A program made the translations under genes and the position numbers. Source: Bdellovibrionales bacterium (GTDB lineage Bacteria; Bdellovibrionota; Bdellovibrionia; Bdellovibrionales; UBA1609). Taken from it: 64,000 bases of DNA. The stretch covers positions 256,001 to 320,000 of the forward strand of contig CBDHDF010000007.1 of assembly GCA_965261545.1 (NCBI GenBank). The letters are read 5' to 3'. Numbering within the stretch: position 1 is the stretch's first letter; the number at the start of each line of letters is the position of its first letter. Shown piece by piece: positions 6,947 to 59,941 of this stretch. A model generated the notes under the pieces. That model was not told where the DNA came from. It did not search any database and was given only the letters and a program-made list of their open reading frames with translations.

Positions 6947-7189
6947 TAAGTAAATTAAGAGATTAAACCATGGTTTTTTTATGGGTAAAGTAATGAGGGG
7001 GATAAATCATGGAAATTGAATTATTTTCTTGGTTTTTAATGCGGTAATTCTGCGACGTCGAAATTAGGCCCATTTTCTGTTGAGAAACTCGGATATACCC
7101 CAAAATATCATAGAGAGTCTTCTTCTTGCTTCATTAGCGGCTCACCTCACATCAAGTGTTGTTTTGAGGATAGGAAGAACTAAAGTAAC

Positions 7190-10100
7190 ATTCATGGGGG
7201 CGCCTTGCTTCCCCACCCACGCCCATGAATCTTATCTAGGCCCCCACTTCTTTGCACGAAGCAACTCGGTGGACAGCTTCGCTGGTCTATATAATTGGCC
7301 TCTTTTAGTTACTCTGGACTTTTGATGGTATTTTTGTCATGTATGATTCCGATACAATAAAGGATAAAGCAATAACATTATTGGAAGGTGATAAGATGAG
7401 TGGCCGTTGAATAGATTGGTAATTTTAATTCCGTGAAGTAACATGGTCTTGAGCTTTGGATCGAACCCACGCATGTACCTGCACTCTGAGTGTATGGACG
7501 TATAGTAAGTTGACCTATTTTCGCTTTAGAATTTATGGCAAAATCCCAAGGCTCTAGTTTTATCACCTTCTTTTTTTCTAACAGAAAGGAGGAGTCATGT
7601 GGATATTATTTATAGTTCTGTTTGTGGAATAGATGTTCATCAACATATGTTGATGTGTACGATTGTCAAAGTGGAAGACGGTAAGAAGAAGTTTTTCACA
7701 AAAGAGTTCAAGAATTTTCCAAAAAATTTTCCTAGAATGCGCTCTTGGATGAAGCCACATAAGGTTGAGAGAGTTCTTTTTGAGAGCACAGGGATTTATT
7801 GGAATTCTTTATACGATGATTTGACAGAAAAAGGTTATGAAGTAGATGTTATCAATGCCTTTCATGTCAAAAATATTACTGGTAAAAAAACTGACGTGTT
7901 GGATAGCCAGTGGATTGCAGAGCTTGGTGCTTGTGGTCTTCTAAGAGCTAGCTTCATTCCTCCACGTGAGATTCGTTCTATTAGACTTTTGGCTCGTTAT
8001 CGTACAAAAACGATCCGCCAAATATCTTCGGAACAAAATCGTATGTATAAGGTTCTTGAATATTCGCATTCGTTTAACATTCATGGGGGCGCCTTGCTTC
8101 CCCACCCACGCCCATGAATCTTATCTAGGCCCCCACTTCTTTGCACGAAGCAACTCGGTGGACAGCTTCGCTGGTCTATATAATTGGCCTCTTTTAGTTA
8201 CTCTGGACTTTTGATGGTATTTTTGTCATGTATGATTCCGATACAATAAAGGATAAAGCAATAACATTATTGGAAGGTGATAAGATGAGTGGCCGTTGAA
8301 TAGATTGGTAATTTTAATTCCGTGAAGTAACATGGTCTTGAGCTTTGGATCGAACCCACGCATGTACCTGCACTCTGAGTGTATGGACGTATAGTAAGTT
8401 GACCTATTTTCGCTTTAGAATTTATGGCAAAATCCCAAGGCTCTAGTTTTATCACCTTCTTTTTTTCTAACAGAAAGGAGGAGTCATGTGGATATTATTT
8501 ATAGTTCTGTTTGTGGAATAGATGTTCATCAACATATGTTGATGTGTACGATTGTCAAAGTGGAAGACGGTAAGAAGAAGTTTTTCACAAAAGAGTTCAA
8601 GAATTTTCCAAAAAATTTTCCTAGAATGCGCTCTTGGATAAAGCCACATAAGGTTGAGAGAGTTCTTTTTGAGAGCACAGGGATTTATTGGAATTCTTTA
8701 TACGATGATTTGACAGAAAAAGGTTATGAAGTAGATGTTATCAATGCCTTTCATGTCAAAAATATTACTGGTAAAAAAACTGACGTGTTGGATAGCCAGT
8801 GGATTGCAGAGCTTGGTGCTTGTGGTCTTCTAAGAGCTAGCTTCATTCCTCCACGTGAGATTCGTTCTATTAGACTTTTGGCTCGTTATCGTACAAAAAC
8901 GATCCGCCAAATATCTTCGGAACAAAATCGTATGTATAAGGTTCTTGAATATTCAGGCATTCGTTTAACCTATGCAATGTCTAAAGCTGACTGCGTATCT
9001 GGTATGGCCATGATTCGTGCCATAGCTAATGGAGAGAGATCAGTTTCTAAATTGATGTCTCTTGCCAGAGGGTCTTTACGTCAAAAGACCGAAGAATTTT
9101 CTTACGCCCTGTCGGGAAAGATGACGGAAGAAAATCGTTTTGTTCTTCAACGCATTCTTGATCGAATAGATTTTTTGAAAAAAGAATGCTCTCAAATTGA
9201 AGAAGAACTTTTCATTCGTATGAAACCCTATGAAAGGCAGTGGCATCTACTCCAGACTATACCTGGAATTGACGAATTAAGTGCAGCGCTTTTGATTGCA
9301 GAAATAGGAGGCAATGTGAAGTCTTTTAAAAATAAAGGAAATTTTTGCTCCTGGATGGGGATTTGCCCATCCAATAATGAGAGCGCAGGAAAAAAAGTCT
9401 TCACGAACGAGGAAAGCGAACACATATGTGAAATCGTTGGTATGTGAGATGGCCAATAGTGCTATTAAGACGAATTCACAATTCAAAGGCAAATACCAAT
9501 CACTTGTTATAAGGCGTGGGCACAAGAGATCAGTGATTGCCGTTGGTCACAAAATGATGGGAGTTGTTTATTCAGTCATAAGTAATGACACCCCCTACAA
9601 AGACCCTGGAATTGACTATGAAAAGCTCATGGTGAAAAAAAATGCACCAAGGTGGATTAGAGCGTTAAAAAAGTATGATTTCATGTAATGTAGGATGATT
9701 TAAAAACTCGGACATTTGAAAAAATTCGAAGAACGGATAGTGGATTCGTGCGTCCAAACTACCCCGGAGATTCATAGTAACCTATGCAATGTCTAAAGCT
9801 GACTGCGTATCTGGTATGGCCATGATTCGTGCCATAGCTAATGGAGAGAGATCAGTTTCTAAATTGATGTCTCTTGCCAGAGGGTCTTTACGTCAAAAGA
9901 CCGAAGAATTTTCTTACGCCCTGTCGGGAAAGATGACGGAAGAAAATCGTTTTGTTCTTCAACGCATTCTTGATCGAATAGATTTTTTGAAAAAAGAATG
10001 CTCTCAAATTGAAGAAGAACTTTTCATTCGTATGAAACCCTATGAAAGGCAGTGGCATCTACTCCAGACTATACCTGGAATTGACGAATTAAGTGCAGCG

Positions 10101-10593
10101 CTTTTGATTGCAGAAATAGGAGGCAATGTGAAGTCTTTTAAAAATAAAGGAAATTTTTGCTCCTGGATGGGGATTTGCCCATCCAATAATGAGAGCGCAG
10201 GAAAAAAAGTCTTCACGAACGAGGAAAGCGAACACATATGTGAAATCGTTGGTATGTGAGATGGCCAATAGTGCTATTAAGACGAATTCACAATTCAAAG
10301 GCAAATACCAATCACTTGTTATAAGGCGTGGGCACAAGAGATCAGTGATTGCCGTTGGTCACAAAATGATGGGAGTTGTTTATTCAGTCATAAGTAATGA
10401 CACCCCCTACAAAGACCCTGGAATTGACTATGAAAAGCTCATGGTGAAAAAAAATGCACCAAGGTGGATTAGAGCGTTAAAAAAGTATGATTTCATGTAA
10501 TGTAGGATGATTTAAAAACTCGGACATTTGAAAAAATTCGAAGAACGGATAGTGGATTCGTGCGTCCAAACTACCCCGGAGATTCATAGTAAA
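7190..10593 (+). mobile_element. IS110 copy A, interrupted at 8078/9782 by copy B
   Basis: Left end attcatgggggcgcc after gtaac; coding sequence resumes ctatgcaatg at 9782; right end ggagattcatagtaa. Confidence 0.9.
8079..9781 (+). mobile_element. IS110 copy B, self-inserted into copy A recombinase; A7 frameshift allele
   Basis: Junctions cgtttaac|attcatgg and catagtaac|ctatgc; ORFs 8488-9447 and 9377-9688. Confidence 0.9.
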
Positions 10594-10810
10594 CTACCCC
10601 GGAGATTCATAGTAACATTCATGGGGGCGCCTTGCTTCCCCACCCACGCCCATGAATCTTATCTAGGCCCCCACTTCTTTGCACGAAGCAACTCGGTGGA
10701 CAGCTTCGCTGGTCTATATAATTGGCCTCTTTTAGTTACTCTGGACTTTTGATGGTATTTTTGTCATGTATGATTCCGATACAATAAAGGATAAAGCAAT
10801 AACATTATTG

Positions 10811-10997
10811 GAAGGTGATAAGATGAGTGGCCGTTGAATAGATTGGTAATTTTAATTCCGTGAAGTAACATGGTCTTGAGCTTTGGATCGAACCCACGCA
10901 TGTACCTGCACTCTGAGTGTATGGACGTATAGTAAGTTGACCTATTTTCGCTTTAGAATTTATGGCAAAATCCCAAGGCTCTAGTTTTATCACCTTC
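10811..10997 (+). ncRNA. Putative IS110 bridge RNA (present in all six copies)
   Basis: Closing stem gaaggtgataaga/ttttatcaccttc; two stem-internal-loop-hairpin modules whose loops match the target (tgaatag, agtaac) and donor (atagtaa). Folded by eye; ends approximate. Confidence 0.7.
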
Positions 10998-11025
10998 TTT
11001 TTTTCTAACAGAAAGGAGGAGTCAT

Positions 11026-12228
11026 GTGGATATTATTTATAGTTCTGTTTGTGGAATAGATGTTCATCAACATATGTTGATGTGTACGATTGTCAAAGTG
11101 GAAGACGGTAAGAAGAAGTTTTTCACAAAAGAGTTCAAGAATTTTCCAAAAAATTTTCCTAGAATGCGCTCTTGGATGAAGCCACATAAGGTTGAGAGAG
11201 TTCTTTTTGAGAGCACAGGGATTTATTGGAATTCTTTATACGATGATTTGACAGAAAAAGGTTATGAAGTAGATGTTATCAATGCCTTTCATGTCAAAAA
11301 TATTACTGGTAAAAAAACTGACGTGTTGGATAGCCAGTGGATTGCAGAGCTTGGTGCTTGTGGTCTTCTAAGAGCTAGCTTCATTCCTCCACGTGAGATT
11401 CGTTCTATTAGACTTTTGGCTCGTTATCGTACAAAAACGATCCGCCAAATATCTTCGGAACAAAATCGTATGTATAAGGTTCTTGAATATTCAGGCATTC
11501 GTTTAACCTATGCAATGTCTAAAGCTGACTGCGTATCTGGTATGGCCATGATTCGTGCCATAGCTAATGGAGAGAGATCAGTTTCTAAATTGATGTCTCT
11601 TGCCAGAGGGTCTTTACGTCAAAAGACCGAAGAATTTTCTTACGCCCTGTCGGGAAAGATGACGGAAGAAAATCGTTTTGTTCTTCAACGCATTCTTGAT
11701 CGAATAGATTTTTTGAAAAAAGAATGCTCTCAAATTGAAGAAGAACTTTTCATTCGTATGAAACCCTATGAAAGGCAGTGGCATCTACTCCAGACTATAC
11801 CTGGAATTGACGAATTAAGTGCAGCGCTTTTGATTGCAGAAATAGGAGGCAATGTGAAGTCTTTTAAAAATAAAGGAAATTTTTGCTCCTGGATGGGGAT
11901 TTGCCCATCCAATAATGAGAGCGCAGGAAAAAAAAAGTCTTCACGAACGAGGAAAGCGAACACATATGTGAAATCGTTGGTATGTGAGATGGCCAATAGT
12001 GCTATTAAGACGAATTCACAATTCAAAGGCAAATACCAATCACTTGTTATAAGGCGTGGGCACAAGAGATCAGTGATTGCCGTTGGTCACAAAATGATGG
12101 GAGTTGTTTATTCAGTCATAAGTAATGACACCCCCTACAAAGACCCTGGAATTGACTATGAAAAGCTCATGGTGAAAAAAAATGCACCAAGGTGGATTAG
12201 AGCGTTAAAAAAGTATGATTTCATGTAA
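11026..12228 (+). CDS. IS110-family DEDD recombinase (400 aa)
   Basis: GIDVH, FESTGIYW, KKTDVLDSQWIA (DEDD); TIPGIDELSAALLIAEIG; NESAGK serine motif; RBS aaaggagg. Confidence 0.95.
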   Translation: MDIIYSSVCGIDVHQHMLMCTIVKVEDGKKKFFTKEFKNFPKNFPRMRSWMKPHKVERVLFESTGIYWNSLYDDLTEKGYEVDVINAFHVKNITGKKTDVLDSQWIAELGACGLLRASFIPPREIRSIRLLARYRTKTIRQISSEQNRMYKVLEYSGIRLTYAMSKADCVSGMAMIRAIANGERSVSKLMSLARGSLRQKTEEFSYALSGKMTEENRFVLQRILDRIDFLKKECSQIEEELFIRMKPYERQWHLLQTIPGIDELSAALLIAEIGGNVKSFKNKGNFCSWMGICPSNNESAGKKKSSRTRKANTYVKSLVCEMANSAIKTNSQFKGKYQSLVIRRGHKRSVIAVGHKMMGVVYSVISNDTPYKDPGIDYEKLMVKKNAPRWIRALKKYDFM

Positions 12229-12321
12229 TGTAGGATGATTTAAAAACTCGGACATTTGAAAAAATTCGAAGAACGGATAGTGGATTCGTGCGTCCAAACT
12301 ACCCCGGAGATTCATAGTAAC

Positions 12322-14026
12322 ATTCATGGGGGCGCCTTGCTTCCCCACCCACGCCCATGAATCTTATCTAGGCCCCCACTTCTTTGCACGAAGCAACTCG
12401 GTGGACAGCTTCGCTGGTCTATATAATTGGCCTCTTTTAGTTACTCTGGACTTTTGATGGTATTTTTGTCATGTATGATTCCGATACAATAAAGGATAAA
12501 GCAATAACATTATTGGAAGGTGATAAGATGAGTGGCCGTTGAATAGATTGGTAATTTTAATTCCGTGAAGTAACATGGTCTTGAGCTTTGGATCGAACCC
12601 ACGCATGTACCTGCACTCTGAGTGTATGGACGTATAGTAAGTTGACCTATTTTCGCTTTAGAATTTATGGCAAAATCCCAAGGCTCTAGTTTTATCACCT
12701 TCTTTTTTTCTAACAGAAAGGAGGAGTCATGTGGATATTATTTATAGTTCTGTTTGTGGAATAGATGTTCATCAACATATGTTGATGTGTACGATTGTCA
12801 AAGTGGAAGACGGTAAGAAGAAGTTTTTCACAAAAGAGTTCAAGAATTTTCCAAAAAATTTTCCTAGAATGCGCTCTTGGATGAAGCCACATAAGGTTGA
12901 GAGAGTTCTTTTTGAGAGCACAGGGATTTATTGGAATTCTTTATACGATGATTTGACAGAAAAAGGTTATGAAGTAGATGTTATCAATGCCTTTCATGTC
13001 AAAAATATTACTGGTAAAAAAACTGACGTGTTGGATAGCCAGTGGATTGCAGAGCTTGGTGCTTGTGGTCTTCTAAGAGCTAGCTTCATTCCTCCACGTG
13101 AGATTCGTTCTATTAGACTTTTGGCTCGTTATCGTACAAAAACGATCCGCCAAATATCTTCGGAACAAAATCGTATGTATAAGGTTCTTGAATATTCAGG
13201 CATTCGTTTAACCTATGCAATGTCTAAAGCTGACTGCGTATCTGGTATGGCCATGATTCGTGCCATAGCTAATGGAGAGAGATCAGTTTCTAAATTGATG
13301 TCTCTTGCCAGAGGGTCTTTACGTCAAAAGACCGAAGAATTTTCTTACGCCCTGTCGGGAAAGATGACGGAAGAAAATCGTTTTGTTCTTCAACGCATTC
13401 TTGATCGAATAGATTTTTTGAAAAAAGAATGCTCTCAAATTGAAGAAGAACTTTTCATTCGTATGAAACCCTATGAAAGGCAGTGGCATCTACTCCAGAC
13501 TATACCTGGAATTGACGAATTAAGTGCAGCGCTTTTGATTGCAGAAATAGGAGGCAATGTGAAGTCTTTTAAAAATAAAGGAAATTTTTGCTCCTGGATG
13601 GGGATTTGCCCATCCAATAATGAGAGCGCAGGAAAAAAAAAGTCTTCACGAACGAGGAAAGCGAACACATATGTGAAATCGTTGGTATGTGAGATGGCCA
13701 ATAGTGCTATTAAGACGAATTCACAATTCAAAGGCAAATACCAATCACTTGTTATAAGGCGTGGGCACAAGAGATCAGTGATTGCCGTTGGTCACAAAAT
13801 GATGGGAGTTGTTTATTCAGTCATAAGTAATGACACCCCCTACAAAGACCCTGGAATTGACTATGAAAAGCTCATGGTGAAAAAAAATGCACCAAGGTGG
13901 ATTAGAGCGTTAAAAAAGTATGATTTCATGTAATGTAGGATGATTTAAAAACTCGGACATTTGAAAAAATTCGAAGAACGGATAGTGGATTCGTGCGTCC
14001 AAACTACCCCGGAGATTCATAGTAAC
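12322..14026 (+). mobile_element. IS110 copy D, intact, head-to-tail with copy C
   Basis: Junction ttcatagtaac|attcatggggg at 12311-12332; right end joins tattcagggggtg of the IS66 TIR. Confidence 0.93.
12731..13933 (+). CDS. IS110-family DEDD recombinase (400 aa)
   Basis: Same protein as 11026-12228. Confidence 0.95.
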   Translation: MDIIYSSVCGIDVHQHMLMCTIVKVEDGKKKFFTKEFKNFPKNFPRMRSWMKPHKVERVLFESTGIYWNSLYDDLTEKGYEVDVINAFHVKNITGKKTDVLDSQWIAELGACGLLRASFIPPREIRSIRLLARYRTKTIRQISSEQNRMYKVLEYSGIRLTYAMSKADCVSGMAMIRAIANGERSVSKLMSLARGSLRQKTEEFSYALSGKMTEENRFVLQRILDRIDFLKKECSQIEEELFIRMKPYERQWHLLQTIPGIDELSAALLIAEIGGNVKSFKNKGNFCSWMGICPSNNESAGKKKSSRTRKANTYVKSLVCEMANSAIKTNSQFKGKYQSLVIRRGHKRSVIAVGHKMMGVVYSVISNDTPYKDPGIDYEKLMVKKNAPRWIRALKKYDFM

Positions 14027-14254
14027 TATTCAGGGGGTGGGCGAATTCGAGTCATAAATGAGGGAAGTTTTCCTTGAAATAGCATATTTAGAGCATCTTT
14101 AGGTTCTATGCAAAATTTCACCTAGTTTGACCCACCCAATTTCACCTGGTTTGACCCACCCAATTTCACGAAGTTTGACCCACTGAATTTCACCAAACAT
14201 TGACCCACTTAGATCTTCATAGATATTCTTTCTGCGCTACGCATTAACGAGGAG

Positions 14255-15778
14255 GTGTCTATGGGCAAACAAGGTAAGAAAAAAGGAGCAAGAATGATCA
14301 ACAATATTAAGAAATACATAGAGCTTGGACTCAGTTCGAGACAAATAGCTCGAGCTATGGGTGTTAGTCGGAACACTGTGAAGAAGTATGTGAAGGATAG
14401 TCCCGGAGGCCCTAACAGCCGCTCAAAGGGGTCGCATGGGCCCTACCAAGCCCCATGGTCATCCAAGGTGAATTGGACAGATGTTCGCCTCAAGCAAAGC
14501 CTAGGGACTCAATTGGCTCATTACTGGGAGCGACATATTCAGTCCGAGATTGACGGTGTGAGTTATCTTTCTTTTTGGAGAGAGTTTCGTCGGAGGCACC
14601 CAAGTATAAAGCTTGATATGCACCAGACATTCACCCCTGGTGAACGGAGTGAGTTTGACTATAAGGGAAAAGACTCTTGTTTTGGCTATACAGATGCCAA
14701 GACTGGGGAGTTCATCCCATGTCGATTATTTGGAATGATACTTCCATCGAGTCAGTTTTTCTTTCCATGCGCCACATTAACAGAGCAGCGGGAAGATGTT
14801 TTTTCCTCCATAGCTTCTGGTTTTGAGTTTTTTGGTGGTGTGACCGGAACCATTGCTTTTGATAACGCAAAGGTTCAAGTGACAAGAGCTGATACTTATG
14901 ACCCCGATATTAACTCTGAGTTTCACCTCTTGTGTGATCACTACAATGTGGCTCCTTTGGCGATGAGGCCATCTCGCCCCAAAGACAAGAGTCTTATCGA
15001 AAATACCCTTGGAGTCTTTTGGCGCTGGTCTTGGCCCCAGATAAGAGAGCGGCAAATGTATTCTCTAGCAGACATCAACGCTGAGTTGAAGCATTTGGCA
15101 GCTATTTTCAATGATCGTATTCAAAAAAAGTATGGGTTGAGTCGTCGACAGAAGTTTGAATCTTTTGAGAAGTCAAAATTGAATCCTCTTCCTGAAAGAC
15201 GCTATGAGAGTGGATTCTGGAAGCATTCCAAGGTTCATCCGGATTGTCACATTCAATATAACTACAATTTTTACTCTGTTCCTTATAAGCATCGCGGCAA
15301 GAAGTTAGATATTCGTATTAGCCAACAATGCTTGGAGGTTTATTCAGAATTAGAGCGGGTGGCGATACATCACATCCCCCAGGGCAGTCGAGGGCGCTAC
15401 TTTACGACAAAATCTCATCTCCCTGAGTCCCACCGGGCCATTTTAGAGCAAACGCCACAAAATGTACTTAAAGAGGCATCAAGCCTTGGAGAAAGCATTC
15501 ACAAAGTTGCCGAGCGGCTTATCAAAGAGCCTCGCCATCCGCTTATGTATCTTCGTCGTGTTCAGGGGATACTCAATCTAAGAAAACGGTATTCAACAGC
15601 TTCTTTGGAGCAGGCTTGCTCATTTTTTGTAGATGCAGCTTTAAGTGACATTAGGGTTCGTGGAGTTGAGAAAGTTATTTCAGCAAAAAGTCATCGAAAA
15701 GAGGAGCCAAGAGTCTGCCGTCAACCTAATGAAAATTTAAGAGGTTCAGAGCACTGGGAGAATGCTTGCCGCCACTAA
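14255..15778 (+). CDS. istA: IS21 transposase IstA
   Basis: N-terminal HTH, PGERSEFDY, FDNAK, PKDKSLIE, YSVPY. Confidence 0.92.
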   Translation: MSMGKQGKKKGARMINNIKKYIELGLSSRQIARAMGVSRNTVKKYVKDSPGGPNSRSKGSHGPYQAPWSSKVNWTDVRLKQSLGTQLAHYWERHIQSEIDGVSYLSFWREFRRRHPSIKLDMHQTFTPGERSEFDYKGKDSCFGYTDAKTGEFIPCRLFGMILPSSQFFFPCATLTEQREDVFSSIASGFEFFGGVTGTIAFDNAKVQVTRADTYDPDINSEFHLLCDHYNVAPLAMRPSRPKDKSLIENTLGVFWRWSWPQIRERQMYSLADINAELKHLAAIFNDRIQKKYGLSRRQKFESFEKSKLNPLPERRYESGFWKHSKVHPDCHIQYNYNFYSVPYKHRGKKLDIRISQQCLEVYSELERVAIHHIPQGSRGRYFTTKSHLPESHRAILEQTPQNVLKEASSLGESIHKVAERLIKEPRHPLMYLRRVQGILNLRKRYSTASLEQACSFFVDAALSDIRVRGVEKVISAKSHRKEEPRVCRQPNENLRGSEHWENACRH

Positions 15779-15859
15779 TCACATAGCCCCGGTGGGTGGT
15801 TCTCAACCACCTAACGGGTCATTTTGACCTCCATAAGAGAGGTCGTATAGGAGAAGAAA

Positions 15860-16588
15860 ATGATTAAACAAACAGAAAATTTATTAGAGATATTAAAAAT
15901 GAGGGGAGTTTTAGCAACCTTGAGCCAGAGGCTCAAAGAAGCTGAGGAGCAGGATCTTGGTTACGAGGACTTTCTAAATGTCATCTTTGAGGACGAAAAA
16001 ATCCATCGTGAAAATCAGAAGGTCTCAAGACTTATCAAAAGAGCAGCTTTGCAGCAAAAAGCAAGCCTTGAGGCCTTTGAAACCAAATCCAACCGAGGAG
16101 TCGATCGAAGAGTTTTGAGTGATCTAGCCCTTATGAGATTTGCTCAAAGAGGTCAAAATATAATTATCTCTGGCCCAACGGGTGTTGGAAAGTCATATTT
16201 GGCTTGTGCCATAGGTAATCACGCCTGTCGCCAAGGTTTTTCCACTCAGTTCTTCAGAATGAATACTCTTGTTGAAAAATTCAACTTAGAAAGAGCCCAG
16301 GGGACATATCTAAACTTCCTTAAAAGGCTAAAATCAGTCTCGATACTTGTGTTGGATGATTTTGGTATCAAGCCCCTTACCTCTAACCAATATCAAGACC
16401 TTTACGATGTGATTGATGAACGAGGCCCTGACCTGAGCCTCATTCTTACAACCCAACTTCCAATAAAAAATTGGAGTGAAGTCATTGAGGATCCCATCGT
16501 TTGTGAAGCTATTATGGATCGCATAACCTCTCAAGCTATCAAAATAGCCATGTCTGGAAGCTCATTTAGGCAGAGAAAGACGATTTAA
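15860..16588 (+). CDS. istB: IS21 ATPase IstB
   Basis: Walker A GPTGVGKS, Walker B LVLDDFG, AIMDRI. Confidence 0.93.
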   Translation: MIKQTENLLEILKMRGVLATLSQRLKEAEEQDLGYEDFLNVIFEDEKIHRENQKVSRLIKRAALQQKASLEAFETKSNRGVDRRVLSDLALMRFAQRGQNIIISGPTGVGKSYLACAIGNHACRQGFSTQFFRMNTLVEKFNLERAQGTYLNFLKRLKSVSILVLDDFGIKPLTSNQYQDLYDVIDERGPDLSLILTTQLPIKNWSEVIEDPIVCEAIMDRITSQAIKIAMSGSSFRQRKTI

Positions 16589-16664
16589 GGAGAATCCATG
16601 CAAAGGCAGACCTTGGAAGACACCATCGGGAGACACTCCATCGGAACTATTGAATCATGTACCC

Positions 16665-16762
16665 GCCAGTTATCCACAAAATTTACCCACGGCAGCGCTG
16701 CGTTGATAGACATCGGGGTCACAGACGCAGCGTCACCATGGATAAATTTGTGGATAACTGGC
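16665..16762. repeat. Conserved 98-bp hairpin with DnaA-box arms (copy in IS21 type 1)
   Basis: gccagttatccacaaaatttacccac...atggataaatttgtggataactggc. Confidence 0.8.
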
Positions 16763-18697
16763 TCGCTATTCTCTGCCATTTTGAGCAATGGATTCAACAT
16801 CCCCATTGAAAAACCCTCCATTGAAACCTCAGAAATGGGGAGGGTCGAGATTCTCAATGACAAAGTGGCCAATTTTAGTTGGCATCTAACATTCTGGCAA
16901 ATAAGCCTTAACCCACCGTTGGGACATCGTGACATTGAGGGTGTAAAAGTTACTGAGTCAGCAGAAAAAAGAAGGTTTAAATTGACAAAGTTTGAGCCAC
17001 CGTGAAATTCAAAATTGGACCTCAAATTGACTGACTGAGGGGTGGGTCAAACTTCGTGAAATTCAGTGGGTCAAACTCGTGAAATTCAGCATCTATGCCA
17101 TTTTTCTGGCAAGTCAGGAGAAAGCTTCGGTTTCTACAAAATGTCTTGGCTCCCATCAACGAACGAAAGCACCCAGATATTTTCTGCTGAACTTTGGTCA
17201 TTCTCAGATCATTTTCTGCTATATTATTCGTAAATGGAACTATGGGGTCCTTCATAAATAGCAAGGTATCATCTTCAAAGTTTCTCAGTCGATCTAGTAA
17301 ATTTCTAGATTTGGATTGTTTAACCTTTCCCTTCTTTTTTTTCTCTGTCCTCTCCATTAATGGAGATTCCTTTTCCCCTTCGAAGAGAATATTTCGATAT
17401 TTCTCTTTGTAATATTCAATTCGGTCTTGTGAAAGGCATTGGTTCTGCGTATCGTGCACCTCTTTGTTTATTGTCTCTAAAAGAGACTTCATTTCTTTTG
17501 CCCATTTTTGATCATCTTGCTCCCAAGCTCTTTGAAGCTCCCTTAAATGGTGCGCATTGCAAAGGGCATGAATGCAGGAAGTATATGTATAATAAGGTTT
17601 CCAATGGTCATGACAAACAATCCCTGTGTATTTTGGAAGAATTCCCATGCGATCCATAGCCTCTGCGCCTCTTTTTTCGTCCACCTGATAGAGAACCACA
17701 GTATCATTGGACAAGAGGTGAAACCACAGCCTCTTCCCATTAACATTCACTCCAGTTTCGTCAGCATGAATCAAAGGTGAGTTCAGAAGAGTTTCCTTTG
17801 CCCACTCCTCAAAAGCTTCCAGAGCCTCAAATGTTAGCTGACAATTAAAATGCCCCACCGTCGCCAATGAAAAGTGGCCACTTTTCAGAGGAGGACCTAT
17901 GGTGATTTTTGGCATTGTCAACCGAGACGCATATAATCAATTGATATTACTCATAAAAAGGCTCCGAGCTGATAAGAACTCCTTTTGGGTTCTTGTCGAC
18001 CTGGAAAGGGGCTCCGTGTTGGAGAGTCCTTCCATGACAGCCTATTCAGGTTCCATATTTGTCATTTGTAGACTGTTTCTGGATTTCAATGAGGTTAAAT
18101 ATATAGTCAAGAAAAGCCTGTTTAGGCTGTGCCCATTTTCTAAAGTATTTAAATTCCACAAGATTCCAACATTTGCCTCAATTTTCATGGAATTTCTTTT
18201 TGAAGACAGGCTTCCCTTAAAGCCGTCGCCAATTAAAATGTCCCACTTTCAATATGGAGGTTGTCGCCAATGAAAAGTGACCAATCTTCAGGGAGTGTTC
18301 AAATACTAGACAATGAAGTCTCTTCTTCTGATATAGATACTAAGCTCACAGAGTCCCTCCCTTTTGCAACTCAAAAGGTTAGCAATGAGGAGGATCTTAT
18401 GATTAGTCAATACACTTTCGGCCGCATTCGTGACCTGAGTCACAGTGGTAAAAATAAGACAGAAATATCTCGTGAATTAGGGATCAATCGTAAGACGGTG
18501 CGCAAGTACTGTAAGTCCAACACCCCACCGAAGTACAAGGCGAGGTCCAAAAGAACTCGCCCAGATCCCCTTAATGGATATATGGATCGGGTGCATAGGT
18601 GTTCGTGGTTTTTTTCTAATTTTAATTCCGAATTAATGGAAATACTTTTCAAGCCTCCTTTTTTACATAGAGGGAAGTGGGCGATTTATAAATATTT

Positions 18698-18800
18698 GTA
18701 ACTGTTCAGGGGGTAGCAGAGTTCAAGAGGTAAATTGCTCCTTCTTACCAGAGAAAATATAAATCTCTCTCTGTAAACTCATGCCCCCCTGAATAGATAC
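18698..18800. mobile_element. 103-bp IS66-derived MITE
   Basis: Ends gtaactgttcaggggg / ccccctgaatagatac; 8-bp TSD aaatattt; absent from the paralogous site near 3780. Confidence 0.9.
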
Positions 18801-52208: not shown

Positions 52209-53765
52209 ATGGAATCTATTCGCCTACGCATCTTATTGGTGATGTTCGGGGCTCTTCTTTCTGTAGGAGGTTTTGGATACCTTACAGCCAAAGCCCATTT
52301 TCAGTATATAAGCTTGAACAAAGAACTTCTCAGTAGTCATGAATTGGTATATTTCGCCAAAATGATTTCTCATCACCCATCCTTTGAACAATCCACCTTT
52401 GAGAATATGAAGAAGTATCGCTCTCAACTTTCTCTTAAAAAGAGAGCTAAGACCTTCAGTGACCTCATTCAGTCTTATGCCGACAAAAATCATCCGCTGG
52501 TTCAGAAAAGAGTCAAGATTGTGATTCAAAATGAAGCTCAATATGTAAATAAAATTCAGGTAAAAACGAATCGTTTGGAGAAGAAGATTCAACTCTATGG
52601 ACTTGCCAGCCTTAGTGCCGTAGCTTTATTTATGGTGATTCTCTTTGCTTATATTCAAGCTTCAATATTTGCTCCTTTGAGAAATCTTTTTTGTAAAATG
52701 ATTGAATTTTTAAACAATCGCTACACTTATCAATTTACAAACCCTAGGCCCGATGAAGTTGGAAAGCTTCATGCCACATTCAATGCTCTCGCTCAAAGGG
52801 TGATAAGCAATATAGAGGAACTAAGGTCTCTTGACCGAGCTAAATCTGATTTTCTCAGTATTGCTAGCCATGAACTACGAACTCCTCTTACGTCTATTAA
52901 GGGTTCTTTGAGTTTACTAAAAAGTGGCGTGGTTGGAGAAGTCAACCCTCAAGTGACTCACCTGATGACCATTGCAGAGACAGAAACAGATCGCCTGATA
53001 AGATTAGTGAATGAAATTCTAGACCTTGCCAAAATTGGGGCAAAAAAGTTTCCATTAAATCGAAATTGGCACTCCTTAAATGATATTGTTGACCAAACTT
53101 TTGAAGCCATTGCGGGGTTGGCTCAAACGGCTGGCGTCCGACTGTCCTATGATAAGTTCCAAAATGTTGATATTTATGTGGATAACAATCGCATGCAACA
53201 AGTGTTTACGAATTTACTTTCCAATGCGATTAAGTATAGTCCCAAGGATGTTCCCGTAACAGTCTCTTCTTACATCAAACAAGAGCGACTTGTCATCGAA
53301 GTCCGTGACCAAGGCCGAGGTATTGCCCCTAAAGATCAGGAGCTTATTTTTGAACAATTCCGCCAAACCACAGGCCCCGACAATCCTCTCGTCAAAGGGA
53401 CGGGCCTGGGCCTCTCTATTGCCAAGGCCATTGTCGAGGAACATGGTGGCTATATTGGAGTTCATTCAGATTTAGGGCATGGTTGCGCCTTTTATTTTAT
53501 TCTTCCCCAGTGGAAGTTTGCTGAATTCACCCAAGAGGCCCTAACTGATGAAAAGGTCCCCGCTGATGAAAAGGTCCTCGCCGATGAAAAGGTCCCCGCT
53601 GATAAAAAGACCCTCGCTGATAAAAAGACCCTCGCTGATAAAAAGACCCTCGCTGATAAAAAGACCCTCGCCGATCAGAAAATCCCCACAAACCAGAAAA
53701 TTTCACCCCTCATAGGCCAAGAAGAAGCTCCCACAGGTCAAAAAGAAGTGCGAGAGATTTTATGA
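52209..53765 (+). CDS. Membrane HAMP histidine kinase with C-terminal repeat tail
   Basis: Two TM helices, DEVGKL, SHELRTPL, NLLSNAIKY, GTGLGL. Confidence 0.92.
   Translation: MESIRLRILLVMFGALLSVGGFGYLTAKAHFQYISLNKELLSSHELVYFAKMISHHPSFEQSTFENMKKYRSQLSLKKRAKTFSDLIQSYADKNHPLVQKRVKIVIQNEAQYVNKIQVKTNRLEKKIQLYGLASLSAVALFMVILFAYIQASIFAPLRNLFCKMIEFLNNRYTYQFTNPRPDEVGKLHATFNALAQRVISNIEELRSLDRAKSDFLSIASHELRTPLTSIKGSLSLLKSGVVGEVNPQVTHLMTIAETETDRLIRLVNEILDLAKIGAKKFPLNRNWHSLNDIVDQTFEAIAGLAQTAGVRLSYDKFQNVDIYVDNNRMQQVFTNLLSNAIKYSPKDVPVTVSSYIKQERLVIEVRDQGRGIAPKDQELIFEQFRQTTGPDNPLVKGTGLGLSIAKAIVEEHGGYIGVHSDLGHGCAFYFILPQWKFAEFTQEALTDEKVPADEKVLADEKVPADKKTLADKKTLADKKTLADKKTLADQKIPTNQKISPLIGQEEAPTGQKEVREIL
53544..53705 (+). 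repeat. 18-bp tandem repeat, about 9 units (ADEKVP/ADKKTL)
   Basis: gctgataaaaagaccctc x4 plus variant units. Confidence 0.9.
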
Positions 53766-55161: not shown

Positions 55162-55412
55162 CATAGGTGTTCGTGGTTTTTTATTCTTTCATAGCAAGAC
55201 CTTTTTAGCCATATTCATTGATGTTTTTCGCCGTCGGTAGTTTGTGTCATAAATTTCATGGGAGAATATCTTGATCTTCTCTATCAAAATATTTAAATAC
55301 TTTTGAGATGAGCTTAGGAGATATTTGATAAAATCAGAGGCTAATAAGACGGTAACCTTAGCAACTCTTTGAAACGATGTGGAGTCATTTTGTTCCTTAT
55401 TGAGTTTAGTTC
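55162..55412 (-). mobile_element. 3' part and right TIR of IS4 passenger element copy 1
   Basis: Reverse complement of about 20472-20722. Confidence 0.9.
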
Positions 55413-55417
55413 GTAAC

Positions 55418-57125
55418 ATTCATGGGGGCGCCTTGCTTCCCCACCCACGCCCATGAATCTTATCTAGGCCCCCACTTCTTTGCACGAAGCAACTCGGTGG
55501 ACAGCTTCGCTGGTCTATATAATTGGCCTCTTTTAGTTACTCTGGACTTTTGATGGTATTTTTGTCATGTATGATTCCGATACAATAAAGGATAAAGCAA
55601 TAACATTATTGGAAGGTGATAAGATGAGTGGCCGTTGAATAGATTGGTAATTTTAATTCCGTGAAGTAACATGGTCTTGAGCTTTGGATCGAACCCACGC
55701 ATGTACCTGCACTCTGAGTGTATGGACGTATAGTAAGTTGACCTATTTTCGCATTATTTTAGAATTTATGGCAAAATCCCAAGGCTCTAGTTTTATCACC
55801 TTCTTTTTTTCTAACAGAAAGGAGGAGTCATGTGGATATTATTTATAGTTCTGTTTGTGGAATAGATGTTCATCAACATATGTTGATGTGTACGATTGTC
55901 AAAGTGGAAGACGGTAAGAAGAAGTTTTTCACAAAAGAGTTCAAGAATTTTCCAAAAAATTTTCCTAGAATGCGCTCTTGGATGAAGCCACATAAGGTTG
56001 AGAGAGTTCTTTTTGAGAGCACAGGGATTTATTGGAATTCTTTATACGATGATTTGACAGAAAAAGGTTATGAAGTAGATGTTATCAATGCCTTTCATGT
56101 CAAAAATATTACTGGTAAAAAAACTGACGTGTTGGATAGCCAGTGGATTGCAGAGCTTGGTGCTTGTGGTCTTCTAAGAGCTAGCTTCATTCCTCCACGT
56201 GAGATTCGTTCTATTAGACTTTTGGCTCGTTATCGTACAAAAACGATCCGCCAAATATCTTCGGAACAAAATCGTATGTATAAGGTTCTTGAATATTCAG
56301 GCATTCGTTTAACCTATGCAATGTCTAAAGCTGACTGCGTATCTGGTATGGCCATGATTCGTGCCATAGCTAATGGAGAGAGATCAGTTTCTAAATTGAT
56401 GTCTCTTGCCAGAGGGTCTTTACGTCAAAAGACCGAAGAATTTTCTTACGCCCTGTCGGGAAAGATGACGGAAGAAAATCGTTTTGTTCTTCAACGCATT
56501 CTTGATCGAATAGATTTTTTGAAAAAAGAATGCTCTCAAATTGAAGAAGAACTTTTCATTCGTATGAAACCCTATGAAAGGCAGTGGCATCTACTCCAGA
56601 CTATACCTGGAATTGACGAATTAAGTGCAGCGCTTTTGATTGCAGAAATAGGAGGCAATGTGAAGTCTTTTAAAAATAAAGGAAATTTTTGCTCCTGGAT
56701 GGGGATTTGCCCATCCAATAATGAGAGCGCAGGAAAAAAAGTCTTCACGAACGAGGAAAGCGAACACATATGTGAAATCGTTGGTATGTGAGATGGCCAA
56801 TAGTGCTATTAAGACGAATTCACAATTCAAAGGCAAATACCAATCACTTGTTATAAGGCGTGGGCACAAGAGATCAGTGATTGCCGTTGGTCACAAAATG
56901 ATGGGAGTTGTTTATTCAGTCATAAGTAATGACACCCCCTACAAAGACCCTGGAATTGACTATGAAAAGCTCATGGTGAAAAAAAATGCACCAAGGTGGA
57001 TTAGAGCGTTAAAAAAGTATGATTTCATGTAATGTAGGATGATTTAAAAACTCGGACATTTGAAAAAATTCGAAGAACGGATAGTGGATTCGTGCGTCCA
57101 AACTACCCCGGAGATTCATAGTAAC
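55418..57125 (+). mobile_element. IS110 copy E (A7 frameshift; 5-bp insertion near 55753)
   Basis: Same ends as copy C; ORFs 55832-56791 and 56721-57032. Confidence 0.92.
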
Positions 57126-57177
57126 TCTTTGAAACGATGTGGAGTCATTTTGTTCCTTATTGAGTTTAGTTCGTAAC

Positions 57178-58881
57178 ATTCATGGGGGCGCCTTGCTTCC
57201 CCACCCACGCCCATGAATCTTATCTAGGCCCCCACTTCTTTGCACGAAGCAACTCGGTGGACAGCTTCGCTGGTCTATATAATTGGCCTCTTTTAGTTAC
57301 TCTGGACTTTTGATGGTATTTTTGTCATGTATGATTCCGATACAATAAAGGATAAAGCAATAACATTATTGGAAGGTGATAAGATGAGTGGCCGTTGAAT
57401 AGATTGGTAATTTTAATTCCGTGAAGTAACATGGTCTTGAGCTTTGGATCGAACCCACGCATGTACCTGCACTCTGAGTGTATGGACGTATAGTAAGTTG
57501 ACCTATTTTCGCTTTAGAATTTATGGCAAAATCCCAAGGCTCTAGTTTTATCACCTTCTTTTTTTCTAACAGAAAGGAGGAGTCATGTGGATATTATTTA
57601 TAGTTCTGTTTGTGGAATAGATGTTCATCAACATATGTTGATGTGTACGATTGTCAAAGTGGAAGACGGTAAGAAGAAGTTTTTCACAAAAGAGTTCAAG
57701 AATTTTCCAAAAAATTTTCCTAGAATGCGCTCTTGGATGAAGCCACATAAGGTTGAGAGAGTTCTTTTTGAGAGCACAGGGATTTATTGGAATTCTTTAT
57801 ACGATGATTTGACAGAAAAAGGTTATGAAGTAGATGTTATCAATGCCTTTCATGTCAAAAATATTACTGGTAAAAAAACTGACGTGTTGGATAGCCAGTG
57901 GATTGCAGAGCTTGGTGCTTGTGGTCTTCTAAGAGCTAGCTTCATTCCTCCACGTGAGATTCGTTCTATTAGACTTTTGGCTCGTTATCGTACAAAAACG
58001 ATCCGCCAAATATCTTCGGAACAAAATCGTATGTATAAGGTTCTTGAATATTCAGGCATTCGTTTAACCTATGCAATGTCTAAAGCTGACTGCGTATCTG
58101 GTATGGCCATGATTCGTGCCATAGCTAATGGAGAGAGATCAGTTTCTAAATTGATGTCTCTTGCCAGAGGGTCTTTACGTCAAAAGACCGAAGAATTTTC
58201 TTACGCCCTGTCGGGAAAGATGACGGAAGAAAATCGTTTTGTTCTTCAACGCATTCTTGATCGAATAGATTTTTTGAAAAAAGAATGCTCTCAAATTGAA
58301 GAAGAACTTTTCATTCGTATGAAACCCTATGAAAGGCAGTGGCATCTACTCCAGACTATACCTGGAATTGACGAATTAAGTGCAGCGCTTTTGATTGCAG
58401 AAATAGGAGGCAATGTGAAGTCTTTTAAAAATAAAGGAAATTTTTGCTCCTGGATGGGGATTTGCCCATCCAATAATGAGAGCGCAGGAAAAAAAGTCTT
58501 CACGAACGAGGAAAGCGAAACACATATGTGAAATCGTTGGTATGTGAGATGGCCAATAGTGCTATTAAGACGAATTCACAATTCAAAGGCAAATACCAAT
58601 CACTTGTTATAAGGCGTGGGCACAAGAGATCAGTGATTGCCGTTGGTCACAAAATGATGGGAGTTGTTTATTCAGTCATAAGTAATGACACCCCCTACAA
58701 AGACCCTGGAATTGACTATGAAAAGCTCATGGTGAAAAAAAATGCACCAAGGTGGATTAGAGCGTTAAAAAAGTATGATTTCATGTAATGTAGGATGATT
58801 TAAAAACTCGGACATTTGAAAAAATTCGAAGAACGGATAGTGGATTCGTGCGTCCAAACTACCCCGGAGATTCATAGTAAC
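57178..58881 (+). mobile_element. IS110 copy F (frameshifted)
   Basis: Same ends; right end joins tattcagggggtg of the IS66 left TIR. Confidence 0.92.
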
Positions 58882-59772
58882 TATTCAGGGGGTGCCGCAT
58901 TAATTCGAACAATTTTTTTAAAAAAAGTATAAAAATTCTTGACAAGTTTTTGAAGCAAACGACCTCTTTCATTTGTTCTTTATCGAATATGTTCCTGCAT
59001 ATGCCTTAAACTCTCTGAGAGCCATAGTATTGAAAGATTGTGAAACATAGGTCGCGGGGGGCACTTCTCATTCCTTTTGCTTCTTAGAACGAATCCTAGT
59101 GCATTTTTTTTAATGAAAAAAAGGCATGTTAATATTTTCATAAGGTAAGTATGAAAATAGAAATATTGACGTGTCTTCAGCCATAAATAAAATCAGGAAG
59201 CTTCTTAAGAAAGAGAAGTCCCTTTCTCCCGCTTTTATTGTGGCCATTGAGTTGTTGATCAAAATCATCACTATTCTAGTAAATCAAAAAAAATTAAATA
59301 GTCAAAACAGTAGTATTGCCCCTTCTCAAGATCCGAATGGCCCTAAAAAGAAACCTAAGGAAGAAACTGGTAAGAAGCCAGGAGGACAACCCGGACACGA
59401 AGGAGCTACTTTAAAACCCGTGGATACTCCAGACAAGGTGGAGTTCATTTCTATTAATAAAGAGGAACTTCCTCCAGGTGATTACATTTCTTCTGGAGTT
59501 GAAAAGCGTCAAGTATTTGAGGTAGACCTTTCTGTGCATGTCACGGAGTATCAAGGAGAAATCCTCGAAGACCAAGATGGGAATCAGTGGGTTGCAGGTT
59601 TTCCAGAAGGAATCAATAACCCAACTCAATATGGCCCTTCTGTGAAAGCTCACTCAGTTTATATGTCCCAGTTTCAGTTAATCCCTCATCTTCGAGTCGC
59701 AAGTTACTTTAATCAATGGGGTCTATCGCTTGCTGGATCTACGGTACACAATTTTAACAAATCTGCCTTTGA
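58877..59772 (+). pseudogene. IS66 copy 2, left TIR and 5' half of transposase
   Basis: gtaactattcagggggtg; LNSQNSSIAPSQD, KPGGQPGHEG.TL, RQVFE, QYGPSVKA. Confidence 0.88.
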
Positions 59773-59941
59773 TGTTAGGCGCCAATTAAAATTTGAGGGA
59801 AAAAGCTACCGATTGAAGGAAGCTTCAAACCGACTTGTCAAGATAAAAAATTAAAGGTAGGGTGAGCCCATCTTGTCAGATCGCCCTAAATGGCCTGGTT
59901 TGCCCGCCCACAAATGGCCTGGTTTAACCCGCCCATCGGGG
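59773..59941 (+). mobile_element. ~20-bp IS21 type 2 end fused to the istB C-terminus and right end of IS21 type 3
   Basis: tgttaggcgccaattaaaat, then FEGKSYRLKE...stop at 59854, then aaatggcctggttt repeats. Confidence 0.8.

Follow-up and report, generated by a model that had tools for sequence, protein, structure and literature searches.

Target regeneration, read from sequence, by an IS110-family element in the terminal repeats of IS66, and the tandem arrays found at the rebuilt site

Two IS110 arrays in one split IS66 element

The window, i.e. the whole 64,000-nucleotide stretch of contig CBDHDF010000007.1 analysed here (Bdellovibrionales bacterium, contig positions 256,001 to 320,000), harbors two arrays of an IS110-family insertion sequence (IS). 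They occupy the two ends of one split IS66 element, whose target-site duplication GAACTAAA at 7177 is found again in inverted orientation at 55405. The arrays and their host comprise the following features, where coordinates without a contig label are those of the window.

7177..7184, forward strand: 8-bp target-site duplication of the host IS66, GAACTAAA; inverted partner at 55405-55412
7185..7188, forward strand: GTAA, the outer four bases of the IS66 terminal repeat, i.e. the left arm and AA core of the original target
7189..8077, forward strand: IS110 copy A, left part
8078..9780, forward strand: IS110 copy B, a full copy within copy A; it sits at the off-target site TTAA|CCTATG with both of its junctions present and carries the 7-A frameshift allele
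9781..10592, forward strand: IS110 copy A, right part; 7-A frameshift allele
10593..10615, forward strand: 23-bp duplicate of the IS110 right end, a one-sided joint to an AA site within the right end
10606..10627, forward strand: first circle-type right-end/left-end junction, 22 nt, TTCATAGTAACATTCATGGGGG
10616..12320, forward strand: IS110 copy C, full 1,705 bp
11026..12228, forward strand: IS110 recombinase of copy C, 400 aa (Pfam domains, conserved catalytic residues)
12311..12332, forward strand: second circle-type junction, between copies C and D, TTCATAGTAACATTCATGGGGG
12321..14025, forward strand: IS110 copy D, identical to C
12731-13933, forward strand: open reading frame (ORF) of copy D, identical to that of copy C
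14022..14037, forward strand: rebuilt target, GTAACTATTCAGGGGG, identical with the IS66 terminal repeat; IS110 supplies the first four bases
14022..17831, reverse strand: 3' part of the host IS66, interrupted by IS21 (istA 14255-15778, istB 15860-16588)
55417..58880, forward strand: second array, at the other end of the same IS66
55417-57124, forward strand: copy E of the second array
57125-57176, forward strand: 52-bp left-flank duplicate between copies E and F
57177-58880, forward strand: copy F of the second array
58877..59772, forward strand: rebuilt terminal repeat and 5' part of the host IS66 (DUF6444 ORF 59171-59854)

An earlier reading of this DNA from its letters alone (the sequence-only reading) had described copies A, C and D as being in tandem, under the range 10617..14040. 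Copies C and D are indeed adjacent and identical, each being a full 1,705-bp unit with an intact 400-aa ORF, and the 22-nt circle-type junction had been located exactly, in both its positions and its sequence. Copy A, in contrast, is split by copy B, which interrupts it within its transposase gene, and is separated from copy C by the 23-bp duplicate; the array itself starts at 7189.

In the 1,705-bp repeat unit the left end measures about 410 bp and the right end 92 bp, and about 35 near-identical copies of the unit are present in the genome. The recombinase shows a domain of family PF01548 (Pfam, E 4.8e-23) and a C-terminal transposase domain of family PF02371 (E 4e-21). Residues D12, E62, D99 and D102 are conserved in at least 90% of 32 aligned rows, and the catalytic serine S299 is nearly invariant in the same alignment. 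All 37 right ends of the genome end in AA and are joined to varied sequence, and the left junctions likewise end in AA. As is characteristic of the IS110 family, terminal inverted repeats and any target duplication beyond the 2-nt core are absent; the sole inverted match found by eye measures 7 bp, with GATTCAT close to the right end and ATGAATC at 36 bp within the left end. The element is accordingly classed by its sequence features as a member of the IS110 family. Long sub-terminal inverted repeats and a right-end RNA, the traits of the IS1111 group (IS4321/IS5075 type), are missing, the guides lying in the left end of about 410 bp and not in the 92-bp right end.

Two further observations concern the unit itself. 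Left-end positions 78-142 (window about 10694-10758) form a stretch of 65 bp that shares about 95% identity with a portion of a high-copy repeat located next to another transposase gene. This stretch holds a TATAAT and is possibly a captured promoter, though a scan of 12150-12760, which covers the circle junction and used the consensus only, found no match to a sigma-70-type promoter. Within the recombinase gene, the run of A residues encoding SAGKKKSS (window 11926-11937, compared over all copies) is in frame with nine A in 14 copies, whereas 18 copies have seven A and three have eight. Some homologues terminate where the run sits, and its variation may reflect slippage, a programmed frameshift or read error.

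The host IS66 is 1,714 bp long with both ends reading GTAACTATTCAGGGGG. It encodes a DDE transposase (PF03050, E 8.6e-42) with DUF6444 at the N-terminus in one long ORF; a three-ORF layout (TnpA, TnpB, TnpC) was not found, and we take the element to belong to the single-ORF, ISBst12-like subgroup. IS66 terminal repeats start with GTAA. An 8-bp duplication flanks four of five empty IS66 copies, and in occupied copies it lies directly outside the outer GTAA (3/3, and four of the four named pairs), from which it follows that IS110 cut four bases inside the IS66 repeat, at GTAA|CTATTCAGGGGG. The window copy of IS66 (14119-17085, 17832-59772) is interrupted by IS21 and split at its position 893-897, the halves now lying in opposite orientation about 41 kb apart; another IS66 copy (contig C7:389891-394912) is broken at the same position.

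Target, guides and the rebuilt junction

Target choice is sharp and goes beyond chance: throughout the genome IS110 is found at 15 of the 33 GTAACTATTCAGG sites, as compared to none of the 14 GTATCTATTCAGG sites and none of the 11 GTAACTGTTCAGG sites. The 11-mer in use as target, GTAA followed by CTATTCA, totals 36 in the genome. A 103-bp mini-element with related terminal repeats is located at window 18698-18800; IS110 was never found in it. On the left side, 25 of 27 distinct primary flanks carry GTAA and the flanks agree over those bases only, since the targeted tip of the repeat has a variable flank. The crossover had been placed after AAC in the sequence-only reading. It falls after AA instead, because five of the 37 right ends continue with G or A; the following C, common to the target arm and the IS110 left end, thus belongs to the right-hand partner.

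Putative guide segments of a bridge RNA were assigned within the left end of copy C as follows.

10835..10841, forward strand: target-loop 5' guide TGAATAG, presumed to pair with the complementary right target arm CTATTCA
10862..10868, forward strand: target-loop 3' guide GAAGTAA, of which only GTAA is used here; the aligned column matches the left flank in relatives
10929..10935, forward strand: donor-loop 3' guide ATAGTAA, equal to the last 7 nt of the element

Minimum-energy folding did not yield the full two-loop RNA (z -1.22), and the loops were therefore assigned by alignment. To this end 160 related loci were scanned with a finder requiring the last 7 nt of the right end to be repeated in the left end. 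The donor 7-mer recurs upstream in 62 of them (29 distinct 7-mers), 57 of which could be aligned with this element. Among 43 distinct relatives the aligned target-loop 3' column matches the left flank over at least 4 nt in 18, with 12 of these at 7/7, while the remaining 25 have no anchor or a weak left-flank match; the mean match is 2.98 as compared to 1.43 with swapped guides. This alignment bears out the guide segments chosen in the sequence-only reading and suggests a bridge RNA with target and donor guides in the non-coding left end, the left target guide being probably 7 nt long. Within each loop, the guide that equals the left arm is positioned on the 3' side in this clade (window 10835-10935 and relatives), reportedly the reverse of the order in IS621.

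As the element ends in ATAGTAA, the right junction again reads GTAACTATTCA. This junction, ATAGTAA|CTATTCAGGGGG, constitutes both an intact target and an IS66 end. Of the 37 right ends, 16 are followed by CTATTCA and show the rebuilt target GTAACTATTCA. On the evidence of the sequence, insertion regenerates both the target and the IS66 end. It had been claimed that the junction recreates a perfect site matched fully by both guide segments and leaves an intact terminal inverted repeat. The rebuilding of the target in use and of the IS66 end, which reads exactly GTAACTATTCAGGGGG, stands, as does the use of the right arm (CTATTCA with TGAATAG) and of four nucleotides on the left. The perfect match was overstated, since ATAGTAA agrees with GAAGTAA at 5/7 positions, and this particular IS66 copy has itself been interrupted by IS21 and divided into two parts.

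The rebuilt junction is on par with a natural site. At flank positions -5 to -7, insertions do not match the guide more often than do 20 empty sites. A is found at -5 in 4 of 25 primary GTAA junctions as compared to 3 of 20 empty sites, and the mean match is 4.52 versus 4.60 of 7. The extra A was considered as rendering the junction a better site than the original one, as had been proposed earlier, and was rejected, no advantage being visible in site use; the original site of the window array, AAAGTAA, already had that A and matches the guide at 6/7. The donor 7-mer alone is rarely used, with 1 of 427 unrelated ATAGTAA sites and 1 of 37 guide-coding sites preceding a left end. One copy (C10:1020990(-) and 1009952(-)) is inserted, with both junctions, exactly in the DNA coding its own donor guide. 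Selection against similarity of donor and target could not be demonstrated across the clade, in which 9 of 44 relatives share at least 4 nt.

Origin of the head-to-tail arrays

In the mechanism proposed here, an active IS110 bridge recombinase targets GTAA|CTATTCA at the tip of the IS66 repeat with the crossover at the AA core, and the donor right end ATAGTAA leaves behind the 11-mer in use together with an exact IS66 end, both as shown by the sequence. With 36 target 11-mers only and reuse apparently unblocked, later copies would often land at an occupied site, and as each new copy would be positioned to the right of the resident one, a head-to-tail array with circle-type joints would result. 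Nested and partial units would arise separately, when the right end reacts locally with AA sites close by, in a one-sided or half-match manner. On balance, re-insertion at the rebuilt site appears to be the main source of the perfect tandems.

Perfect head-to-tail joints are found at 10 of the 37 right ends, and all ten lie in arrays ending with a rebuilt terminal repeat. A random-site model (26 insertions on 36 sites) gives 7.3 expected joints, so that the ten observed are close to it (P 0.096). The arrays had been called self-amplifying, which overstates the case: the targets per locus stay at one, and the copy-number spread is barely above random (P about 0.09-0.10). As an array does not multiply its targets, it is better described as accreting.

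Two markers per copy, a 1-bp indel in the left end and the length of the A-run, were used to compare neighbours. Six of the ten joints link copies that are unlike at one or other marker, which is near what random pairing would give (4 alike versus 2.4 expected, P 0.21), while nested or partial neighbour pairs are alike in 4 of 6 cases (P 0.03). Local duplication predicts like neighbours, so that the six unlike joints fit re-insertion. A diverged 105-bp mini-element at C11:725855 is followed directly by IS110; right ends of the mini-element type precede an IS110 left end twice, whereas none of the 37 IS110 right ends precedes a mini-element. Unlike neighbours and the order of mini-element and IS110 both seem somewhat better explained by re-insertion at the rebuilt site. 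Diverged non-autonomous derivatives of about 105 bp with IS110 ends are found at C2:289188, C2:233571, C3:20915, C6:3593, C7:555316, C10:576501 and C11:725901, several of them in related terminal repeats, and a 12-bp footprint at C11:1028790-1028810 joins a left junction to a right end via a shared ATTCAT.

Six genomes with related elements contain two perfect joints in about 134 copies. In all of them the junction breaks the left target arm, the perfect joints being 0/64 in G063, 2/33 in G061, 0/about 7 in G062, 0/18 in G066, 0/5 in G067 and 0/7 in G075. Genomes G068-G074 were left out of these counts, as they mostly hold 1-3 copies per element. G066 was considered as a regenerating control on account of a 6-nt shared suffix and rejected, its targets needing CTTGGCAG and its donor differing at -7. 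In the distant relative G067, five loci (L218, L223, L228, L234, L236) have the same right flank (5/5) and varied left flanks; this element apparently also targets the end of a repeated element. A single-protein scan for close relatives with DNA found none. The best identity among 60 relatives was 35%, no match at 1e-90 was found in 400 genomes of the phylum, and plasmid matches stayed below 60%. Homologues at 65-80% lack genomic context and thus provide no close positive control.

Several points weigh against re-insertion as the main source. G061 has a perfect triple and G063 four near-tandems, both without target regeneration; in the latter the right end is joined to an AA site 5, 11 or 56 bp before the left junction, duplicating the flank by these lengths, or 12 bp after it, with a 12-bp loss. 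The large controls have short and abundant targets, so that few re-insertions would be expected anyway, while those with scarce targets are tiny (5 and 7 copies), and a fully regenerating relative as positive control is lacking. Fisher tests on the joint counts overstate the difference, as neither joints nor genomes are independent. Four of the ten joints link like copies, and a circle recombining with a resident copy would likewise give unlike neighbours. Both markers are indels, which may mutate repeatedly or be sequencing errors. For the left-end indel, a real difference and not a long-read error is supported by a depth ratio of 0.94, as compared to 0.925 expected for a real indel and 1.07 for an error; this support does not extend to the A-run. 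Hu et al. report 437 tandem duplications of complete IS110 modules (10.64898/2026.08.14.744561), and for CazIS110-1 Sun et al. describe tandem cargo in 3/96 excision colonies as a by-product (10.1101/2025.10.25.684509). Re-insertion is preferred on four indirect lines: the number of joints, near that of the random-site model; the unlike neighbours at six joints; the order of mini-element and IS110; and the scarcity of tandems in relatives.

The strongest alternative, itself rather unlikely, regards the tandems as local by-products of copy-out or donor-half-match reactions, in which a right end is joined to its own or a sister left end, resolution takes place on the spot and regeneration is incidental. 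One-sided joints are indeed common, with 6 of 37 right ends joined to internal sites and 3 of 37 to a duplicated flank, and these nine are of the same make as the near-tandems of G063. The latter, together with the flank duplicates and partial units seen here, demonstrate that a one-sided route exists across the clade. The tandem cargo of CazIS110-1, repeat units with matches to the left donor only (10.64898/2026.08.14.744561) and the half-match recombination demonstrated by Xie et al. (10.64898/2026.08.31.748434) point in the same direction. The nested and partial units, also present in relatives without regeneration, are not accounted for by re-insertion. Contrary to the prediction of identical neighbours, however, six of the ten perfect joints differ; local reactions do not yield the order of mini-element followed by IS110, and they would predict perfect tandems in G063 and G066 as well, where none is found.

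That the arrays or copy numbers are long-read assembly artefacts, produced from circle-junction reads or mis-resolved repeats, is very improbable. The assembly is of metagenome type, in 11 contigs. Four of the 8 sequencing runs were compared with one IS110 copy plus its right flank, all as short-read contigs; these end at a branch point after the right end, none of those listed bridges a junction by 31 bases on both sides, and no joint is seen among the pieces listed. On the other hand, the array is bounded by matched 8-bp duplications, both junctions of the nested insertion are found at a single AA site, neighbouring copies differ at their markers, and unrelated genomes carry the same odd joints. 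The contig depth ratio of IS110 to IS21 is 1.6 and 2.5, bracketing the expected 2.1, if only as a rough guide, depth being no copy number. Taken together, these features argue that the array is real.

Least probable of all is the entry of circles into resident copies by RecA-type homologous recombination, or unequal sister crossover, which would give the same head-to-tail joint, have about 35 near-identical copies at its disposal, agree with the occurrence of all four main marker combinations (suggesting exchange between copies) and could complete flank-IS-flank-IS units by unequal crossing-over, but which leaves unexplained why G063 with its 64 near-identical copies has no perfect joint and would, by crossover in the short shared left end, place IS110 before the mini-element and not after it.

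Apart from the arrays, the window contains an 18-bp tandem repeat within a 518-aa ORF (53515-53694).

Relation to IS66 and to known systems

A more far-reaching reading, which we consider quite improbable, is that both ends of IS110 have come by convergence to resemble the IS66 terminal repeat, making insertion free of cost to IS66: the inner junction would be an exact repeat that also serves as a fresh target, and the IS66 transposase could use the outer junction GTAACATTCATGGGGG as a look-alike. In that case an IS110 array might travel as cargo within IS66, and its excision would amount to a simple reaction of donor by target, free of the usual bias towards insertion. Mini-elements of 51 bp that have the outer IS110 junction at each end, in inverted repeat, are found at C2:618619(-), at C6:99927(+) and in six copies at C2:345413-383673, with exact 8-bp duplications in two of them and a 7/8 duplication in the repeated one. 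The two with exact duplications fit such a convergence of ends; the minis could have been moved by IS66 or be what deletions left of IS66 copies that had both ends occupied. The likeness of donor end and target guide may be due to chance, as the 9 of 44 relatives mentioned above share at least 4 nt. No direct evidence was found for co-transposition of IS110 and IS66 as a unit.

In current models of bridge recombinases insertion destroys the target, rendering immunity unneeded and the reaction one-way, as stated in 10.64898/2026.08.14.744561. By its sequence the present element is a natural exception, about a quarter of its right ends being joined in perfect tandem. It allows a direct test of the reuse of occupied junctions and of how many left-arm bases matter (four of a 7-nt guide here). 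For editor design, a donor end equal to the left arm of the target should give multi-copy insertion. In biological terms, one mobile element parasitises the end of another without breaking it.

Tandem IS110 arrays and repeat-targeting IS110 elements are already known, and in a literature search no IS110 element was found described as regenerating its target or as targeting IS66 ends, although preprint supplements, outside that search, may list such cases. The expanded IS110 loci of Hu et al. (10.64898/2026.08.14.744561) resemble the window arrays in that full and partial modules stand in tandem, donor matches at the borders are one-sided and target immunity is lacking. CazIS110-1 (10.1101/2025.10.25.684509) shares head-to-tail repeats with a donor junction, but there the tandems were confined to the 3/96 colonies and reverted. 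For ISPpu9 and MITEPpu9 (PMC12288879) a non-autonomous mini-element in tandem with the IS is described, as is the case here. Unlike the reading preferred here, i.e. re-insertion at the rebuilt site, the portions of the CazIS110-1 and ISPpu9 accounts considered do not attribute tandems to a rebuilt target. A preprint on ISPpu10 (10.64898/2026.03.19.712850) concerns large amplifications.

The standard bridge-recombinase model is that of Durrant et al. 2024 (PMC11208160) and Hiraizumi et al. 2026 (PMC13626964), and insertion of IS621 yields two hybrid junctions distinct from the target (PMC11208160). The present element resembles IS621 in its DEDD plus serine recombinase, the long left end with target and donor guides, the 2-nt core and insertion into a repeated element. 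It differs in its AA core, in a right junction that is equal to the target being used, and in being directed to an IS66 end and not to a repetitive extragenic palindromic (REP) sequence.

Closer to the present case with regard to the target are IS4321/IS5075, found in the terminal repeats of the Tn21 family, and IS1383, found in the repeats of IS1384, which interrupt the repeat they target. All are IS110-family elements directed to the terminal repeat of another element, but here the cut falls 4 bp in from the tip of the repeat, which is restored to its exact sequence. With regard to the outcome, the nearest parallels are arrays of the CTX-phage type at dif, and genomic islands that occur in tandem at tRNA genes, where each integration restores a usable site and elements accrete. 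As in such target-regenerating integrators, one junction of the IS110 element is, by its sequence, the target in use. Those systems employ tyrosine recombinases with sites read by protein, whereas site choice here would be guided by RNA.

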